From the IMG/VR virus record IMGVR_UViG_2923355181_000001: a DNA stretch of 42,980 nt; one strand, given 5' to 3'. Shown here one piece after another: positions 152 to 12,752 of the stretch. Within the stretch, counting starts at the first letter, position 1; each line of letters begins with the position of its first letter. The DNA is from a virus (taxonomy: Duplodnaviria > Heunggongvirae > Uroviricota > Caudoviricetes). Under the pieces are notes generated by a model that saw only the letters and a program-made list of their open reading frames with translations, was not told the DNA's origin and ran no database searches. The translations under genes and the position numbers were made by a program.

Positions 152-227
<76 letters not shown>

Positions 228-280
228 GTTTAAAAGGCATCGGCGTCAGCGGATGTCTGGCTGAAAGGCCTGAAGAATTT

Positions 281-354
281 GGCGCGTTAACAAAGCGGTT
301 ATGTAGCGGATTGCAAATCCGTCTAGTCCGGTTCGACTCCGGAACGCGCCTCCA
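281..354 (+). tRNA. cysT: tRNA-Cys (GCA)
   Basis: GGCGCGTTAACAAAGCGGTTATGTAGCGGATTGCAAATCC...GCGCCTCCA; GCA anticodon in loop, CCA end. Confidence 0.93.
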
Positions 355-366
355 CTTTTTTCCCGA

Positions 367-453
367 GCCCGGATGGTGGAATCGGTAGACACAAGGGATT
401 TAAAATCCCTCGGCGTTCGCGCTGTGCGGGTTCAAGTCCCGCTCCGGGTACCA
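367..453 (+). tRNA. leuZ: tRNA-Leu (UAA), class II with long variable arm
   Basis: GCCCGGATGGTGGAATCGGTAGACACAAGGGATTTAAAATCCC...GGGTACCA; 87 nt, UAA anticodon; immediately precedes the prophage integrase. Confidence 0.92.
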
Positions 454-2793: not shown

Positions 2794-5006
2794 GCTGTTT
2801 GCTCCTGTGCAGCGGTAAGGGCGGCGAGGCGTTCAGTTTTAATGTCGGTGATACGGCGCAGACGTGATCCCAGATACGATGAATATTCTTTATCGCCTTT
2901 GGTTTCCGCTGCTTTCCTGTGTACATCCACTTCGCGGGCGATGAGGCCAAATACCTTGTTTACTTCGTTGGCGGTTACCGCGGCGGCCAGCGTATTGGCA
3001 ACGTTGATAAGCTTCTCATCCAGTTCCTTACGCAGACGGGTAGCATCTTCCGCATTCTCGCTGGCATTCTTGATATCAAACTCAGCTTTATTCCTCTGGC
3101 GGTATTCCGGATTGTCGTACAGGCCCATGAAAATATCGGCGCTGAATCCGAGAGGGGATAGCGCTTTCTTAACAGCATCCGTCCAGGATTTCTTCGGTGC
3201 TTCGCCGTCGCTTGTTGGTCCGTATTTAGTGTCGTAGATATAAGGTGTGCATCCGTAAGCCTCGGACTCACCGCGTACCCCATTCAATATGTACCAGACT
3301 CTCACTTTCATGGTGTGGTGCATTTCACATAGGTACCCGCCAACACCGTCTTGAATCAGATCCCATTCTATTTTTTCACCAACCTGTTTTTTGCGAACTA
3401 TTGGTGCGCCTTTATCAAAGCGCTCCTCCAGCACCTCTACCCCCCAGCCAATACCAAATGGCCCAAATTCGCGAGTCGCTTTCATCGCTATATAAGTGCC
3501 GTTGATGGATGTGCCGCCGCCATTCTGAGAGAAAGCACTGGTGAAGCGCTCATCGGTTTTGAATACGTTCTTCCACAATGCCAGGTTATCCGTGTCATCT
3601 GAGTCCTTTAACTCCGTTTCGATAGCTGAGATTGCATTCTGCCGCTTGTGCTCTTCGGCATGGATCCGCTCAACCAGCGCGTCAACGTTCTGCACCAGAT
3701 CCTTTACCTGCTCGCTAAGTTGTTCTTGTGGAGGAGTCTCTTCTGCCAGGGTAATAGCTGCAGGTTCCCTCTGTGATACGGCGTTATTTTCAGGTACGTC
3801 ATACACATGGCGAGGCGTGACAAACTGCTCACGCAACTGCTGCAAACTACGTTCTCCAGCATTTGCAGCTTCGCTTTTTTCGCCCTGATTTGAGGGTGTT
3901 TCTGACATCATCCCATCAATTGAGAATCGTCCGCCGCCGTGGTTGGTGACTTTTACATCATCCTTGGGTGCTGCTTCCTTTGGCTTCTCTTCAACAGCAT
4001 TTGCATCACGCTGCCCGTTAGCTTGCAGCCAGTTGTCGATGTGACTGCGCAGGGATTGTGGGAAGTGGTACGTGTCTTTTGCGGGGGCGCTCTGAATAAC
4101 ACCGAATACTGATGCGCGGTCATAGGCAAGGATCTGATCCGTTGTGCGCAAGGCCATTGACCAGCGTTTAAAATCTTCCCTGTCCTGACTGATTATTTCG
4201 TCTGCCGCTTTCAGGATGCTGGGGGTGATTTTTTCCGGGGCAACAGGTAACAGGGCGCAGGCAATTTCACGATCCAGAGTGGCGTGAGTCTGTTTGTAAG
4301 GACGTGCGGATGCTGTTTCTGGTTTTACCTCCGGCAGCATTTCATCTCGTTTACCGGGATTCTCTACCCATTTTTTTATAAATTTGGAGATAGTCCAACT
4401 GGTCGGGTTTTGTTCCTGGGTATCGCAACTTGCCAAAATTGCATGTACCAGATTATTCAATCCAGCAATATGCATGTACTCGATGGGCTTACACGCCACC
4501 ATGGCATCAAGAACGATGCGGTTAAACGCGTCAACCTCATCCTCACTGTCAGTATCACTGTTATCGAGCATCTCCAGGTATTCACGCGTCTGCACAAGCA
4601 ATTCACTGTCGACTTCGTTGGCGTCGTGGCTGAACAGCAGAACGGCGGCGAATCGTTCACGAGCCGGCAGTTTCATCAGGTCGCTAACCTGTGAGATATC
4701 TGCTGAACTGCAATCTGAATCAACAGGAGTGTTAACTACCCATTTTTCGCCATCAAAACTGTGTTCTGTGGCAAACGTCTCATCAAACTCACCGACGCCT
4801 GGGCGCGGTTGGCCCGGGGCATCTTCCCAGATTTTAGGTTTGAAATAGTTGTCGCCGTGGTCAGGGTAGGCTTCCCACAATTTGCCGATGATGATGTTCT
4901 CGGCAACTTTTTTGTTAGGGGCGGCGATGGCGATGGCCAGCGCCGGGATCGCGCCGTTTTTGAGCGCGCCTTTTTTCGCTTCTAACAAGCCGTTAAAAAT
5001 GGTCAT
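2790..5006 (-). CDS. large recombination protein with Rad52-like single-strand annealing domain plus about 470-aa N-terminal region of unknown function
   Basis: 738-aa uninterrupted ORF; residues about 470-620 (...SQNGGGTSINGTYIAMKATREFGPFGIGWGVEV...KKSWTDAVKKALSPLGFSADIF) resemble the Rad52 N-terminal core; start has ATGAGGAAAGACCAATG context. Confidence 0.65.
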   Translation of the reverse strand: MTIFNGLLEAKKGALKNGAIPALAIAIAAPNKKVAENIIIGKLWEAYPDHGDNYFKPKIWEDAPGQPRPGVGEFDETFATEHSFDGEKWVVNTPVDSDCSSADISQVSDLMKLPARERFAAVLLFSHDANEVDSELLVQTREYLEMLDNSDTDSEDEVDAFNRIVLDAMVACKPIEYMHIAGLNNLVHAILASCDTQEQNPTSWTISKFIKKWVENPGKRDEMLPEVKPETASARPYKQTHATLDREIACALLPVAPEKITPSILKAADEIISQDREDFKRWSMALRTTDQILAYDRASVFGVIQSAPAKDTYHFPQSLRSHIDNWLQANGQRDANAVEEKPKEAAPKDDVKVTNHGGGRFSIDGMMSETPSNQGEKSEAANAGERSLQQLREQFVTPRHVYDVPENNAVSQREPAAITLAEETPPQEQLSEQVKDLVQNVDALVERIHAEEHKRQNAISAIETELKDSDDTDNLALWKNVFKTDERFTSAFSQNGGGTSINGTYIAMKATREFGPFGIGWGVEVLEERFDKGAPIVRKKQVGEKIEWDLIQDGVGGYLCEMHHTMKVRVWYILNGVRGESEAYGCTPYIYDTKYGPTSDGEAPKKSWTDAVKKALSPLGFSADIFMGLYDNPEYRQRNKAEFDIKNASENAEDATRLRKELDEKLINVANTLAAAVTANEVNKVFGLIAREVDVHRKAAETKGDKEYSSYLGSRLRRITDIKTERLAALTAAQEQTA

Positions 5007-5036
5007 TGGTCTTTCCTCATTACAGGTCAGTGGTTT

Positions 5037-5357
5037 TTAGTAGGGGAGCTCATCGGTATCTGGCGTGTATTCGATGCAAAGTAACTGCTGGATTTTGTCA
5101 TCGATAGCAGCAATACGCTGTTGGGCGTCGGCGACTGTTTTCTGTTTTTGTTCACGCAGTTGCTCGACCTGTAAACCGATGATGTCGATTGGCTCGGGCT
5201 GGTTAACGGTAATTTCAATTTCGCGGCTTTCCAGAAGGATGTACCTGTCTGGAAAATTTTTTGACATATCAACAGTCGCAACAAGCAGCTTTTCGTGGCT
5301 GAAAGTTGAAGTTGCATAATGAATAAAGAGTGTTACTGGGATGGTGCGCGCTTCCAT
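5037..5357 (-). CDS. hypothetical early-left protein
   Basis: 106-aa ORF, AGGAG 5 nt upstream of ATG; first gene after the long leader. Confidence 0.55.
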   Translation of the reverse strand: MEARTIPVTLFIHYATSTFSHEKLLVATVDMSKNFPDRYILLESREIEITVNQPEPIDIIGLQVEQLREQKQKTVADAQQRIAAIDDKIQQLLCIEYTPDTDELPY

Positions 5358-6222
5358 AGCGACTCCTTGGTAATGTATACTCAGAGCCGATCAGCGAATA
5401 TTGATCAGCTTCCATAGCGTCAGTGTCGTTGGTCTTTCCTCATCACAAGTTTGGTCACTTGTGATAAATCCGAATGGTTTGGTCGCCGTTCGGGGTAACT
5501 GGCCCGCCTTGTGCGGGTCTTTTGCTATCTAAAGGGTGCCGGTTACGTTTCCGGCGTCGTTATGTTTCCATTACGACCGTACAGGGCTGGTCAGGCCCGG
5601 GCTGGTCTTTCCTGTTTTGAGCTGGTCAGGCTCATGGTCAACGCTGGTCAGGCGTGGTACTTCCTCCGGTCTTTCCCTGGTGTCACGCTGCGGGTTTGGC
5701 CTCTCCTGTTGGGGACTCAGGCACAGCGATAAAACCTGGCTGTGTGAAAAAATGGCCCATCGTGCGGACTGGGCAAAGACTAAACACAGCAAATTGATGA
5801 TGGGCGCCCGGAATCGAACCGGGTAACGGGCAGGGAGTTCCCGTTAAACACCTGTTCACCACAACCGGGAGCGCACTCCGCCATTTCAAAATTTAACGAC
5901 AAAGCTCAAAGTTGAGTCGATGAAGTGCGCTCTCGTGTTGTAGCCAGGACTCTTCCCTGGTGGTCACACCGTATCGCCTTGATGGTGAATCAATCGCTCA
6001 TACCTGGCTGTGGCTTGCACATTCCGGCTACCTGCTATGGAGACAACGCGTTAAGGCTCCGCTTCCATCCAGACCGCTTCGACACATGTGCCATATGCCG
6101 GTGAAGTCTTTCCCTCTGTCACCGTGTTGGCGCCGACGCGCAAAATTTGGTGCCGTCTTTCCGGCTGTCAGAACGTGTTTCTGAACAACTGCCGCTGGGT
6201 AAGCGTTGTTGATGAAAGTGAC

Positions 6223-6280
6223 TTTACAATTTGTATTTGTAATGGTCAATGTGTTTTTAAAAAATAATTTGTAGTGAGGG
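6223..6280. promoter_or_regulatory. candidate left operator/promoter (OL/pL-like)
   Basis: Repeated AATTTGTA cores (TACAATTTGTA, TTTGTAATGG, AATTTGTAGTG) just beyond the repressor 3' end; same core as in the repressor/cro intergenic region. Confidence 0.4.
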
Positions 6281-6367
6281 GCAAAAAAATATTCACTGTG
6301 TAAAGGTGTTTTTGTGTTAGGGGAAAGTTGCATGCCAGCAGCGGCTGGCCTGGAAATTTGAACTGAA

Positions 6368-6781
6368 CTATTTTGTCTGGTTTTTGGCTTCAAGTAGTTC
6401 TTTTAGCAGTAGATCGAAGTGCTCTCTTTTTTCTTTTAGCTCATTGATTAATTTATTTTTTTCGCTCTCAGGCAGTCCTCTGAATAGTTGCAGTAGAGCC
6501 TGTTCTTGCGGGGTTAGTTCTTGATTGTAATTACCCGGGTGTAGTGTGGATTCATCCAAATATTCCCCTTCATTCATGAAGAAAAAATGAACAGGGTATC
6601 CGGTCACTTTTGCTAGCTTGTCTAATTTATCTTTTCTTGGAGTTACCCCATTACACCATGCCTGAACTGATTGAGCCGTAACCCCAATATGGCGAGCTAA
6701 CTCAGATTGAGACCAGCCTAAGTCTTTTAGAATCCGTTGTAGTCGGCTAGCAAAAGCCATGTTTTTCGTTTTTGTGTTCAT
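6368..6781 (-). CDS. prophage repressor, HTH (XRE-type) without peptidase S24 domain
   Basis: HTH-like segment FASRLQRILKDLGWSQSELARHIGVTAQSVQAWCNG; divergent from a Cro-like gene; track ORF begins at TTG 6796, ATG 6781 or 6760 more likely (possibly leaderless). Confidence 0.7.
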   Translation of the reverse strand: MNTKTKNMAFASRLQRILKDLGWSQSELARHIGVTAQSVQAWCNGVTPRKDKLDKLAKVTGYPVHFFFMNEGEYLDESTLHPGNYNQELTPQEQALLQLFRGLPESEKNKLINELKEKREHFDLLLKELLEAKNQTK

Positions 6782-6798
6782 ACCGTAAGGATACAAGG

Positions 6799-6860
6799 TT
6801 TAATTGTAGGGAGCATTGCAAATATAATTTGTAATTACAGTTATTGTTTGTAATGATGAC
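6799..6860. promoter_or_regulatory. candidate right operator/promoter region (OR-like)
   Basis: Three spaced sites with TTGTA(A/G) core, including perfect palindrome TGTAATTACA (6830-6839); lies between divergent repressor and cro-like genes. Confidence 0.5.
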
Positions 6861-6879
6861 GCGGACACAAGGAGTCCAT

Positions 6880-7110
6880 ATGGATAAACAACTGCAAGAC
6901 AAAATTCTTTCCGTAATGAGTCAATCCGAGTTAGGGCGGCGATTAGGGAAAAAACCACAAACGGTAAGCCTCTGGTTCAAAGGACGGGTTCCCGGTGAAG
7001 AGGTTTTGCGCACATCTGAAGCTCTTGAATGGCGCGTGACCCCTCATGATCTTAGACCGGATCTTTACCCAAACCCAGATGACAGCTTGCCTAAAACGGA
7101 AGCAGCTTAA
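6880..7110 (+). CDS. Cro/YdaS-like small DNA-binding protein
   Basis: 76 aa from ATG 6880 with AAGGAG 6 nt upstream; HTH-like LGRRLGKKPQTVSLWFKGR; divergent from repressor. Confidence 0.6.
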   Translation: MDKQLQDKILSVMSQSELGRRLGKKPQTVSLWFKGRVPGEEVLRTSEALEWRVTPHDLRPDLYPNPDDSLPKTEAA

Positions 7111-7168
7111 CTGTTGGTGAGCCCCAAATCTGATTAAGCGTAATCAATTTTTAGCGACAGGAGACGCT

Positions 7169-7645
7169 ATGGAAAACCAAGAGGAATTACAAAAAGAGAT
7201 TTTGACCTGGGCGGCAAGGGCAGGGCAGGAACTCGTCACGATTGAAATCTGCCGGGCCTGGTTCAGTCAGGGACGCAATGATGAGTTGAGACTACATGAA
7301 TTTGAGGACGCGGACGGCAACGTGGACTGGAGAGCCATCAACAACAATCGGCAGAAAATCTTTCGCTGGTTACGTGGCGAGACAACGGCGGCGCGCCGAA
7401 AAACTCAGGTGCTGGCCAGTGTGATGAAAGCCGTGCTACCCGCAGAACGGCGGGCACGTCTGGAGTCGCCGGGCGATCCCGTTTTGCTGGCAACGCTGGC
7501 GGCAAAAGAAGGGGTGGAAGCGATTAACGCTGTACATCTCCACTTCGCGCCAGAGTTAACTATTCAGGAAATTGACGAAGCAATAGCGGCGCTGGTAGCG
7601 ACGCGAGGAGCAGTGATACGCACTGCGCAAGACCACCATGCATGA
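7169..7645 (+). CDS. YdaT-like / CII-position regulatory protein
   Basis: 158-aa ORF immediately after the cro-like gene, AGGAG RBS; family assignment is by position and size. Confidence 0.4.
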   Translation: MENQEELQKEILTWAARAGQELVTIEICRAWFSQGRNDELRLHEFEDADGNVDWRAINNNRQKIFRWLRGETTAARRKTQVLASVMKAVLPAERRARLESPGDPVLLATLAAKEGVEAINAVHLHFAPELTIQEIDEAIAALVATRGAVIRTAQDHHA

Positions 7646-7684
7646 GCGCCTGACCAGCGTTTAACTTATACCGAGGAAAGACCG

Positions 7685-7909
7685 ATGTTAAGACATATTG
7701 ACCGCATTACCTGGCGTAACGGCTGGCACCTGAATGGACGCCCGGCACATGTTGCAGAGATCCGCCCCATATTCGATGGCCGCGTCGCAGCTGCACGTTC
7801 TGTATGGGAAAAGTACGAAGAAGAAAAAGCGAAACTGCGTGAGCAAAATCTCTCTGGCGCTGCCTATGAGGCTGGCTGTCGCGTTCTCTCAGAGGCTTTG
7901 GGCATATGA
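7685..7909 (+). CDS. hypothetical protein
   Basis: 74-aa ORF preceded by conserved cassette GCCTGACCAGCGT...CCGAGGAAAGACCG-ATG. Confidence 0.45.
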   Translation: MLRHIDRITWRNGWHLNGRPAHVAEIRPIFDGRVAAARSVWEKYEEEKAKLREQNLSGAAYEAGCRVLSEALGI

Positions 7910-10066: not shown

Positions 10067-10104
10067 CCACGCCTGACCAGCGTGAAATAACCGAGGAAAG
10101 ACCA

Positions 10105-11691: not shown

Positions 11692-11963
11692 ATTGACTTA
11701 GAAAAAGTCCGGGGCTATAGTTTCCGCGCAGCCGCAAAATCGGTTGCCGGGATTGGCGTCCCGGATATCTAAGTGACGCATAGCCGCGTTAGCGGTTTTT
11801 TTATGTGTTAGGCACGGCCACATTCGCATTATGGTGGGCTGTGTGGGGGCTTCTGTGGAAGCGCCGGGTTCACTTAGCCGGTTACGCCAACCCTGCACAG
11901 CTCACCACCAGATGATTGGCGTCGCTGGTGGTGATGAAAAAAACACTAAGTGAGGCCACTGCG

Positions 11964-12752
11964 ATGACAGTCCAAATATCTGCGGAATCCCTTTCTCCGC
12001 TACATCATAACCAACTTCCCGTCATCACTACTGAATTGCTTGCCAGTTTGTATGGCACGGAAGTAAATGGTATCCAGCAAAACTTCAAGCGCAACATCGC
12101 CAGATTTGTCGTAGGAAAGCATTTTTTTAAGCTGGAAGGTAATGAATTACGCGACTTCAAAAACAGACTGACAGATAGTCAGTCAGTTGCTAAACATACC
12201 CGATCCCTCATTCTCTGGACAGAACGCGGCGCAGCTCGCCATGCCAAAATGCTGGAAACAGAACAGGCCTGGGAAGTTTTCGAAAAGCTGGAAGATTGTT
12301 ATTTTAGCCAGCGTCCAGAGAGGCGGAGTACAACTACCGATGACCGTACTCCCTTGCGTGATGCCGTTAATATACTGGTCGGCAAGAAAGGCATGATGTA
12401 TCCCGATGCCTACACCATGATTCATCAACGCTTCGCCGTCTCTCACATAGAACAACTGTCACAGACGCAAATGTTAGAGGCGATTGAATACATCCACTGC
12501 CTGCTACTCGATGAAAATCACCCAACCATTCCAGATTTTTCTTTTATCACCACTATCAAAAATGGAAAAGTGACCGGGATGCGCCATGTTGCCAAAGGCG
12601 AACATCTGATGACCTTTGACGCTTTCAAAGAGATCGCTGAGCGGGCAGGGTATCTGGTGATCCACAGCGACAATCTGCGAAGTATGACACTGGATAAATT
12701 GATGGTAATGGGGAAAAAGTCGGCTATATCCGTTGCTAATTCAGCATTTTGA
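11964..12752 (+). CDS. phage antirepressor-like protein (ORF6N/KilA-type)
   Basis: Track ORF starts TTG 11916; ATG 11964 preceded by GAGG; N-terminal region resembles antirepressor N-domains. Confidence 0.55.
   Translation: MTVQISAESLSPLHHNQLPVITTELLASLYGTEVNGIQQNFKRNIARFVVGKHFFKLEGNELRDFKNRLTDSQSVAKHTRSLILWTERGAARHAKMLETEQAWEVFEKLEDCYFSQRPERRSTTTDDRTPLRDAVNILVGKKGMMYPDAYTMIHQRFAVSHIEQLSQTQMLEAIEYIHCLLLDENHPTIPDFSFITTIKNGKVTGMRHVAKGEHLMTFDAFKEIAERAGYLVIHSDNLRSMTLDKLMVMGKKSAISVANSAF

Follow-up and report, generated by a model that had tools for sequence, protein, structure and literature searches.

A conserved non-coding early-left leader of an Escherichia coli prophage with a folded RNA family and an RprA-like terminator unit

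The early-left leader and its promoter

The window, i.e. the whole stretch of 42,980 nt that was analysed (IMG/VR record IMGVR_UViG_2923355181_000001), is an E. coli prophage of ST131 type inserted beside the tRNA genes glyW-cysT-leuZ. The subject of this analysis is the leader of its early-left operon (5358–6367), in which a folded RNA element is followed by a tRNA-like remnant and a terminator unit resembling the 3' end of the host small RNA (sRNA) RprA. RefSeq/PGAP lists zero annotated features between the helix-turn-helix repressor gene (6368–6796, minus strand) and the gene of a 106-aa hypothetical protein (5037–5357, minus strand). Beyond the latter lie an exonuclease gene, a Gp157-family gene, and excision and integration genes; rightward of the immunity region are cro-like, CII-like, O-like and DnaB-like genes. 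From this layout, the relevant strand of the leader is the minus strand, read leftwards. Among 5426 complete E. coli genomes, 474 carried the stretch 5300–6420, which was 100% identical in many ST131-type chromosomes.

No conserved open reading frame (ORF) was found in 5358–6367; the ORFs of the gap are short and none is kept in relatives. Searches of ten early proteins against PHROGs and Pfam yielded no antiterminator, no N-like protein and no known RNA-binding protein. A preliminary description, made from the sequence alone, had reported about 1 kb without ORFs at the position equivalent to lambda N/nutL, next to an operator cluster near 6223–6280. Both the lack of genes and the position were borne out, and an operator palindrome is present at 6224–6243. 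The leader is a truly non-coding, conserved and structured early-left RNA leader. Its borders and 5' part are as follows:

6221–6249, minus strand: PL promoter, TTGACC-17-TAAAGT, the sole sigma-70-like site in 4900–7200
6224–6243: operator palindrome TTACAAN8TTGTAA, overlapping the PL promoter
6103–6214, minus strand: conserved 5' leader, with the transcript start CAUCAACAACGC at about 6214 and hairpins H0, H1 and H2
6168–6185, minus strand: hairpin H0
6152–6165, minus strand: hairpin H1, GCCG-GAAAGA-CGGC
6103–6116, minus strand: hairpin H2, GAGG-GAAAGA-CUUC
5355–5368, minus strand: start of the first early-left gene, AAGGAG-N5-AUG with the ATG at 5357 (ORF 5037–5357 by PGAP; PHROG 2479, function unassigned)

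The palindrome recurs in two related copies at 6816–6854, between the repressor and cro genes. As it lies over the only sigma-70-like promoter of 4900–7200 and recurs between these two genes, PL is repressor-controlled. Relatives carry an equivalent promoter, and sequence conservation starts just downstream of it.

The conserved 5' leader was found in almost all of 14 distinct 5' leader variants. The stems of H1 covary (GCCG/CGGC, GCCCG/CGGGC and GUCUG/CAGAC), as do those of H2 (GAGG/CUUC, GCGG/CUGC and GCGG/CCGC). Each of the two leader halves folded moderately better than its shuffles (z = -2.4 and -2.1). At its 5' end, the PL transcript matches the cII coding sequence of phage HK022 over ~25 nt (TCATCAAC-AACGCTTACCCAGCG; 6189–6214) except for a 5-nt indel. 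This match includes an exact 16-mer (E 0.001; 5622–5653 of the HK022 stretch examined) and was the only significant one to HK022. The piece is out of frame and without a start codon here, and may be a recombination relic.

A folded RNA family and the terminator unit behind it

The leader RNA contains a structured element with these parts:

5859–6100, minus strand: structured RNA element, about 240 nt, helices P1–P7
6080–6100, minus strand: helix P1
6014–6032, minus strand: invariant 19-mer GGUAGCCGGAAUGUGCAAG
5979–5993, minus strand: helix P5, loop UUCACCA (family loop YUNACCA)
5967–5970, minus strand: GGUG, candidate pseudoknot partner of the P5 loop
5944–5960, minus strand: helix P6, loop GAAGAGU (family loop GAAGAGA/U)
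5922–5940 with 5859–5879, minus strand: closing helix P7, ending in GUUGUGG

The family is defined by the 19-mer (in the window GGTAGCCGGAATGTGCAAG, 6014–6032 in the minus sense) flanked by helices P1, P2, P5 and P6 and the closing P7, and the window copy has all of these helices. A covariance model built from an alignment of element representatives scored 146.8 bits (E 2e-42) at 5928–6104, the sole copy in the window. Covariation was tested in 24 representatives at ≤93% identity for a structure comprising P1, P2, P5, the P5-loop pseudoknot and P6. The proposed pairs formed in 97.8% of cells, compared with 28–54% when the partners were slid. Compensatory changes occurred at ten pairs, and the observed values were matched by none of 500 shuffles. 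P7 forms in 38 distinct strand pairs, some with compensatory changes. Several invariant G-U pairs mark the minus strand of the window as the functional one. Hence, covariance analysis across homologues, which the preliminary description had proposed as a check, supports a folded RNA.

A conserved reading frame was not found in the element: no frame was open in more than 8 of 30 representatives, and the variable hairpins and segments change length in all three classes modulo 3. Rfam 15 gave no match to the element at E ≤10 in the window and none at E ≤0.05 in phage P1, mEp460, SPN1S and other loci. AgvB, AsxR, Esr41, STnc100, DicF and Y RNA were rejected as its identity, as none matched on the element in Rfam. 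Kinship of the leader with RNase P RNA was likewise rejected. The motifs shared with M1 RNA, namely GGAAAG(U/A)CC, CUGACCAG and GUGCAAC..GAGAGCA, are chance similarities, and matches between M1 and the leader (word-6 blastn) were no better than those of 30 shuffles and were not collinear. The Pas sRNAs of a 2026 preprint are late-region sRNAs and unrelated. An earlier description of the element, or of a phage copy of RprA, was not found in the literature searched, which did not cover the anonymous catalogues of viral structured RNAs (PMC10690425). With these catalogues set aside, the structured element has no known relative in Rfam or in that literature.

The element is widespread. In a distant search of a phage collection, window positions 5929–6100 matched unannotated DNA of unrelated phages at 72–77% identity, among them the epsilon15-like SPN1S, Tyrion and PAT1, Klebsiella phages, and the P1-like D6 and SJ46. 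The exact 19-mer occurred in >120 IMG/VR contigs, giving 112 distinct variants. A further 24 loci, nearly all in Enterobacteriaceae, were found in species-representative genomes (covariance-model scores of 114–170 bits). The core of the element was present in 1833 of 5426 complete E. coli genomes at 2467 places (554 on plasmids), with no annotation at these places among the matches listed. On this comparative evidence, the element is a folded RNA family, strongly conserved, widespread in phages and without annotation.

The 'Stenotrophomonas' phages BUCT708 (OM816834) and BUCT709 have the whole leader and the same gene order. Their immunity region is of enterobacterial type, their leader matches at 72% identity across 79% of the query, and the host given for them is questionable.

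In mEp460, cdtI and Stx2c phages, it stands directly after the repressor gene, as in the window. In phage P1, it is part of the ban operon, which is under C1 control, with trnI on one side and ban on the other (71031–71194). The order in this operon (68791–71295) is the dicF-like region, tRNA-Asn, tRNA-Thr, tciABC, tRNA-Ile2, the element and a short upstream ORF that overlaps the start of ban, so that several RNA genes are lined up in front of a replication gene.

A tRNA-Arg(UCU) follows 3' of the element on the same strand in 21 of 112 variants, its first bases overlapping the GUUGUGG end, and tRNA-Ile2/Met(CAU) precedes the element in 15 of 112. In many element/tRNA-Arg units, a terminator comes soon after the tRNA. 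Enrichment of terminators downstream of the element was not seen in a simple scan, which found equal numbers in controls. A promoter-like site was present within 200 nt upstream in 48 of 123 distinct contexts (39%), compared with 41 of 615 random windows (6.7%). Promoter proximity, tRNA fusion and terminators fit a discrete RNA that heads a transcription unit and would be matured in the manner of a tRNA.

In the window, the element is followed by two further pieces:

5801–5858, minus strand: tRNA-like remnant, with a T-arm-like hairpin CCCGG-UUCGAUU-CCGGG (5807–5823), then GCGCCCA
5747–5792, minus strand: RprA-like sRNA 3' domain, with seed UUGCUGUGUUUAGUCUUUGCC, terminator hairpin 5755–5774 and U6 run 5747–5752

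The remnant occupies the position that a real tRNA-Arg(UCU) fills in the 21 variants mentioned above. ARAGORN called no tRNA in the leader, and the Rfam match to tRNA-Sec reached only 19.3 bits (E 1.2). The T-arm-like hairpin is similar to cysT of the same window in its T-arm and 3' acceptor strand (score 33, shuffle maximum 28), the control being unmatched in that the shuffles were scored against phage tRNA-Arg. Homology to phage tRNA-Arg itself was rejected. The mEp460 variant (about 3170–3330 of the stretch examined; L016 type) has a tRNA-like fold after GUUGUGG, with acceptor GUGGUGA/UCACCAC, a D-arm GCGC-AGGCUGAU-GCGC and an insertion of ~75 nt, which ARAGORN did not call; two terminator-like hairpins lie between this fold and the first gene.

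The RprA similarity begins where the remnant ends. Positions 5792–5747 align with nt 61–105 of E. coli RprA, with 40 of 44 bases identical and the terminator loop included; the query was a 105-nt sequence 100% identical to the annotated rprA. The alignment stops at nt 61, and upstream of it lies the tRNA-like remnant. A permissive Rfam scan placed a match to RprA (RF00034) at 5745–5855 (37.4 bits, E 0.02). The conserved single-stranded 3' segment and the terminator are homologous to E. coli rprA. Processed RprA consists of the last 47 nt, coexists with full-length RprA and has its own regulatory activity (PMC9262595).

The seed AUUGCUGUGUGUAGUCUUGGC is kept in relatives on three unrelated terminator hairpins. 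As the seed is kept while the hairpins differ, selection acts on the seed. Pairing of the seed with GGAAAGAC translation starts is a weak idea: the complementarity is only 6–7 nt and was not among the best duplexes in the window. A scan of the minus strand from PL to the first gene picked out a single terminator-like site, the hairpin at 5755–5774 with its U6 run. In two IMG/VR contigs (L087 and L120), GATGTGGTGAAAAGACAGGCA stands before the element and again, ~900 nt further, before a separate RprA-like seed that has a terminator of its own; the gene between the two runs in the opposite direction. In these contigs, a junction sequence common to the modules seems to travel with them.

The leaders of relatives fall into the following classes:

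element, tRNA-like piece and RprA-like unit, as in the window
as in the window, without the T-arm (BUCT708 type)
no element, with the RprA-like unit directly after H2
element present, with neither RprA-like unit nor terminator
neither element nor RprA-like unit

Nearly constant across the classes are the transcript start with H0, H1 and H2 at the 5' end and, at the other end, the 3' block with the hairpins hpE and hpF (listed below), the SD-like GAGGAAAGACCAA (SD, Shine-Dalgarno) and the true start of the first gene. Short ORFs from SD-like motifs vary from class to class in frame, length and start codon. One or both of the element and the RprA-like unit are missing from close relatives, which makes them optional cargo of a leader whose frame is conserved.

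This arrangement bears on whether the folded RNA or, as the other candidates, H1/H2 are a cis-acting processive antiterminator like HK022 put, which would modify RNA polymerase for read-through of the RprA-like terminator and of downstream Rho-dependent sites without N. An intrinsic terminator does stand between PL and every early-left gene, no N-like gene was found, and leaders of the mEp460 type have the element ahead of terminator-like hairpins too. The element is near a promoter in several unrelated promoter contexts, and the invariance of its single-stranded segments hints at contact with host machinery that is itself conserved. Against this, relatives that share PL, the terminator and the first gene do without the element, which argues against an antiterminator on which this operon depends. 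Other relatives have the element and no terminator, and in the epsilon15-like unit of element, tRNA and terminator there is nothing to read through. Put-type copies downstream of both PL and PR were not found; there is one element copy per phage, as in the window, and none in the PR operon. The ~240 nt of the element far exceed the ~70 nt of put. No meaningful blastn-short match linked it to putL or putR, and the covariance model found nothing in the HK022 locus. We therefore consider put-like antitermination unlikely. The preliminary description had suggested an RNA-based regulatory or antitermination leader; a non-coding leader acting at the RNA level is supported, and antitermination is not (no boxA, no N-like gene and no put similarity).

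Fixed-loop hairpins and the 3' part of the leader

Two kinds of short hairpin recur in the leader and in the rightward operon. The features concerned are:

5584–5680, minus strand: array of three CUGACCA-loop hairpins and SD-like GGAAAGACC motifs
5639–5656, 5618–5634 and 5584–5598, minus strand: CUGACCA-loop hairpins, stems ACGC/GCGU, UGAGC/GCUCA and GGGC/GCCC
5666–5680 and 5602–5614, minus strand: SD-like GGAAAGACC motifs
5427–5555, minus strand: conserved 3' leader, with an H3-like hairpin at 5538–5555 and a block at 5470–5538
5501–5519 and 5470–5493 (hpE), minus strand: hairpins in the conserved 3' block
5442–5465, minus strand: hpF, a 9-bp hairpin with loop GACCAA
5427–5441, minus strand: SD-like GAGGAAAGACCAACG
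7646–7684, plus strand: rightward gene junction with stop codon, CUGACCA-loop hairpin, GAGGAAAGACC and AUG
10067–10104, plus strand: second rightward gene junction with the same modules, holding an 18-nt repeat of a leader hairpin

The motifs named in the preliminary description were all found again: three copies each of CCTGACCAG (minus strand) and GGAAAGACC in the leader, the 9-bp-stem hairpin at 5442–5465, and a plus-strand GC hairpin with a T-run, placed here at 5501–5519. The exact recurrence of a 16-mer on the other strand was confirmed, with its coordinates one base off (10069–10084 instead of 10068–10083). The lack of boxA also held: with up to 1–2 mismatches allowed, nothing like CGCUCUUUA was present in 5358–6220. 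The preliminary description had overlooked the folded RNA, the unit resembling RprA, and the use of the two motifs as hairpin loops or SD modules, which recurs where real genes meet.

Exact copies of CCTGACCAG lie on the minus strand at 5587–5595, 5622–5630 and 5644–5652 and on the plus strand at 7649–7657 and 10072–10080. The 16-mer CACGCCTGACCAGCGT, with its second copy at 10069–10084, is part of a shared stretch of really 18 nt, and both copies read the same way within their own transcripts. GGAAAGAC occurs 11 times in the window against an expectation of 1.39, a number reached by 0 of 100 shuffles. Five of the 11 copies are in the leader (three of them as GGAAAGACC), and all 11 are in the sense of transcription. 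The leader RNA contains GGAAAGAC 5 times (dinucleotide-shuffle mean: 0.03), CTGACCAG 3 times (0.03), AAAGAC 6 times (0.38) and GACCA 9 times (1.7); none of 300 dinucleotide shuffles reached the observed counts.

In the leader, GGAAAGAC is also the loop and closing pair (G-GAAAGA-C) of short hairpins with covarying stems. Across all loci, GAAAGA stood between stems of at least 4 bp in 76 of 1118 occurrences, with 31 distinct stems, compared with 0.6–1.8% for permuted loops, a 5- to 10-fold enrichment. CCTGACCAG makes up the fixed 7-nt loop CUGACCA and the closing pairs of hairpins whose stems vary yet stay complementary; [CA]UGACCA loops were found on 23 distinct stems across loci. The P5 loop (YUNACCA) and the P6 loop (GAAGAGA) of the element resemble the two fixed-loop types.

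These loops invite comparison with boxB. They are found in both early operons, and the GAAAGA- and CUGACCA-loop hairpins could be sites for a phage or host RNA-binding protein that acts as an antiterminator, a translational regulator or a processing factor, as N does at nutL/nutR. That both loop types are fixed while their stems covary is in keeping with such a role. So are the positions of the CUGACCA hairpins, which lie in the PL leader and at two places of the PR operon, always in RNA sense and in the latter operon directly after stop codons, and the likeness of the P5 and P6 loops. However, no boxA and no arginine-rich or known RNA-binding candidate among the early genes accompanies them, the loops of 6 (GAAAGA) or 7 nt (CUGACCA) are not GNRA-like pentaloops, and GGAAAGACC is also simply the SD sequence and spacer of several real genes. 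We give boxB-like sites as little credence as put-like antitermination.

GGAAAGAC serves as SD sequence and spacer of a real gene at no fewer than four places, in the form GAGGAAAGACC(A)AUG. These include the 738-aa exonuclease gene (5006) and the genes starting at 7685 and 10105. In the rightward operon, the CUGACCA hairpin comes directly after the stop codon, 8–12 nt before GAGGAAAGACC-AUG. Such junctions raise the question of whether the region consists of decayed small genes, the motifs being leftover intercistronic junctions whose ORFs were deleted by recombination between repeats and which are functionless now. The hairpin plus GAGGAAAGACC-AUG module does stand at real junctions (7646–7684, 10067–10104 and before the 738-aa gene at 5006). 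The number of units in the 5584–5680 array differs between relatives, some of which carry short non-conserved ORFs from these SD sequences. Moreover, a start-like ACG follows the SD sequence at 5427–5441, and 12 nt of the gene start are duplicated. Decay would cover at most 5584–5680 and 5427–5441, however. Elsewhere there are compensatory stems, invariant loops, a 22-mer in 40 contigs and the 19-mer in >120, and no frame conservation. As an account of the leader, gene decay is the least probable of the alternatives considered here. For the whole region, where the preliminary description had offered it, it fails on the lack of a conserved frame, on indels that are not multiples of three and on compensatory stem changes. 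In a narrow sense, it may apply to 5584–5680, which has the same junction modules as lie between real genes, in varying number.

The 3' end of the leader is well conserved. The start region of the first early-left gene is kept in 20 of 20 distinct 3' leader variants. hpE changes from CCGAA/UUCGG to CCGGG/CCCGG, the loop of hpF is kept on five different stems, and a 22-mer of the most conserved block (5498–5519) is identical in 40 viral contigs. Composition like that of C-rich Rut sites was not seen downstream of the terminator, where the RNA is rich in A and has similar amounts of C and G. A CsrA sponge was rejected: in hairpins judged by eye, GGA triplets are not placed in loops as in CsrA sites.

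The 12-nt duplication CGCTATGGAAGC (5408–5419 and 5350–5361) is a copy of the first gene's start-codon region within the leader; relatives of the BUCT708 type are without the upstream copy. On the plus strand, 5501–5519 forms a terminator-like hairpin followed by TCTTTTGC within the most conserved leader block. It could end an antisense RNA over the start region of the first gene; a consensus scan found no plus-strand promoter for such an RNA.

Elsewhere in the window, the prophage integrase comes directly after glyW-cysT-leuZ (window 152–453 and 584–1600). In E. coli K-12, the native 3' external spacer of leuZ is the sponge RNA 3'ETS-leuZ, and integration beside leuZ could part the tRNA from this spacer. 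At 11715–11912, Rfam matches to c4-a1b1, isrK and C4 antisense RNA, all above the gathering score, form a true C4/isrK pair. It is followed by an ORF6N antirepressor-like gene (11916–12752), i.e. a P1 ImmI-type antirepressor control in a lambdoid prophage. The same pair is present in mEp460 (698–886 of the stretch examined).

Proposed mechanism and comparison with known systems

The reading that we favour, and consider somewhat more probable than all others together, is a PL leader that is a mosaic of RNA modules: a folded RNA, a tRNA-like remnant, an RprA-like terminator unit and optional cargo. On loss of the repressor, transcription from PL would start near 6214. The nascent RNA would fold the conserved GAAAGA-loop hairpins first and then the ~240-nt multi-helix RNA, followed by the tRNA-like remnant and the copy of the last ~45 nt of RprA, ending in the intrinsic terminator at 5747. 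Since this is the only minus-strand terminator between PL and the first gene, the default PL product (about 6214 to 5747) would be a wholly non-coding RNA of ~470 nt. Cutting at the tRNA-like junction, probably by tRNA-type processing (RNase P and RNase E), would free the folded RNA and an RprA mimic of ~50 nt. The latter may act in trans with Hfq on targets of processed RprA. Read-through of the terminator would cross a further 390 nt of structured untranslated RNA and then express the recombination and excision genes.

The promoter with its operator, the fold family, the RprA homology, the terminator and the lack of coding can be read directly from the sequence. Several points weigh against the mosaic and its mechanism. 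We infer the start site, the processing and the discrete RNA species from sequence, and the function given to the folded RNA is a guess. The tRNA-like piece has no ARAGORN call, and its likeness to phage tRNA-Arg is at chance level. The RprA score of 37.4 bits is under the Rfam gathering score of 70, so the full model's threshold is not reached; the 5' stem-loops and the rpoS-pairing region of RprA are missing, only the 3' domain being aligned. A spacer of 2 nt separates the terminator hairpin from the U run, which makes the efficiency of the terminator uncertain. Finally, PL is repressed in lysogens, and any effect in trans is thereby limited to induction or infection.

As to the folded RNA, we would sooner guess at a stable, discrete molecule acting on some host component that is conserved than at a cis antiterminator. 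That the element represents a functional class of phage RNAs with tertiary structure, matured in the tRNA manner and acting on a conserved host machine, with the fixed-loop hairpins belonging to the same recognition system, is a tentative proposal to which we give slightly less than an even chance. It might be, for example, a decoy for a tRNA- or RNA-targeting factor, a modifier of polymerase or ribosome, or a ribozyme.

Among known systems, the processed 47-nt 3' form of RprA (RF00034) shares with the window the single-stranded UUGCUGUGU(G/U)UAGUCUUUGCC and the terminator hairpin. It differs in that the window unit sits in a phage PL transcript and not behind an Rcs-controlled promoter, and relatives swap the terminator. 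The RprA-like unit joins a known kind, the sRNAs of phage early operons: DicF (Qin dicB operon), the dicF-like region of P1 ban and StxS (early termination at PR') are sRNAs within or from repressor-controlled phage transcripts. The P1 ban operon combines a dicF-like region with the present element. The window unit differs from all of these in its RprA-type seed and in its fusion to a tRNA-like piece and a large folded RNA upstream of it.

Like the window element, HK022 put is protein-free RNA that lies ahead of terminators in the early leader of a lambdoid phage lacking N; the window element is much longer (~240 nt against ~70 nt), single-copy and dispensable in close relatives. The nut sites of lambda and P22 share short hairpins with fixed purine-rich or UGAC-containing loops in both early transcripts, whereas the window is without boxA and N gene and has 6–7-nt loops in many copies at gene junctions. 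The C4 RNAs of P1/P7 and the CI RNA of P4 are phage regulatory RNAs excised from leader transcripts by RNase P. They exemplify the kind of maturation proposed here for the tRNA or tRNA-like junction and have no sequence relation to it.

Few genetic systems have been studied as thoroughly as phage P1 and the lambdoid phages of E. coli. That a large RNA supported by covariation is missing from Rfam and from RefSeq annotation, yet occurs in a third of complete E. coli genomes, would therefore be a genuine blind spot. In lambdoid phages without N, as this leader shows, the position of N can act as an insertion platform for non-coding RNA cargo. In the RprA-like unit, the phage would carry a copy of the active end of an envelope-stress sRNA of its host, placed under the control of the lytic switch. 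If so, induction of the prophage would be coupled to the post-transcriptional networks of its host in ST131, a pandemic lineage.

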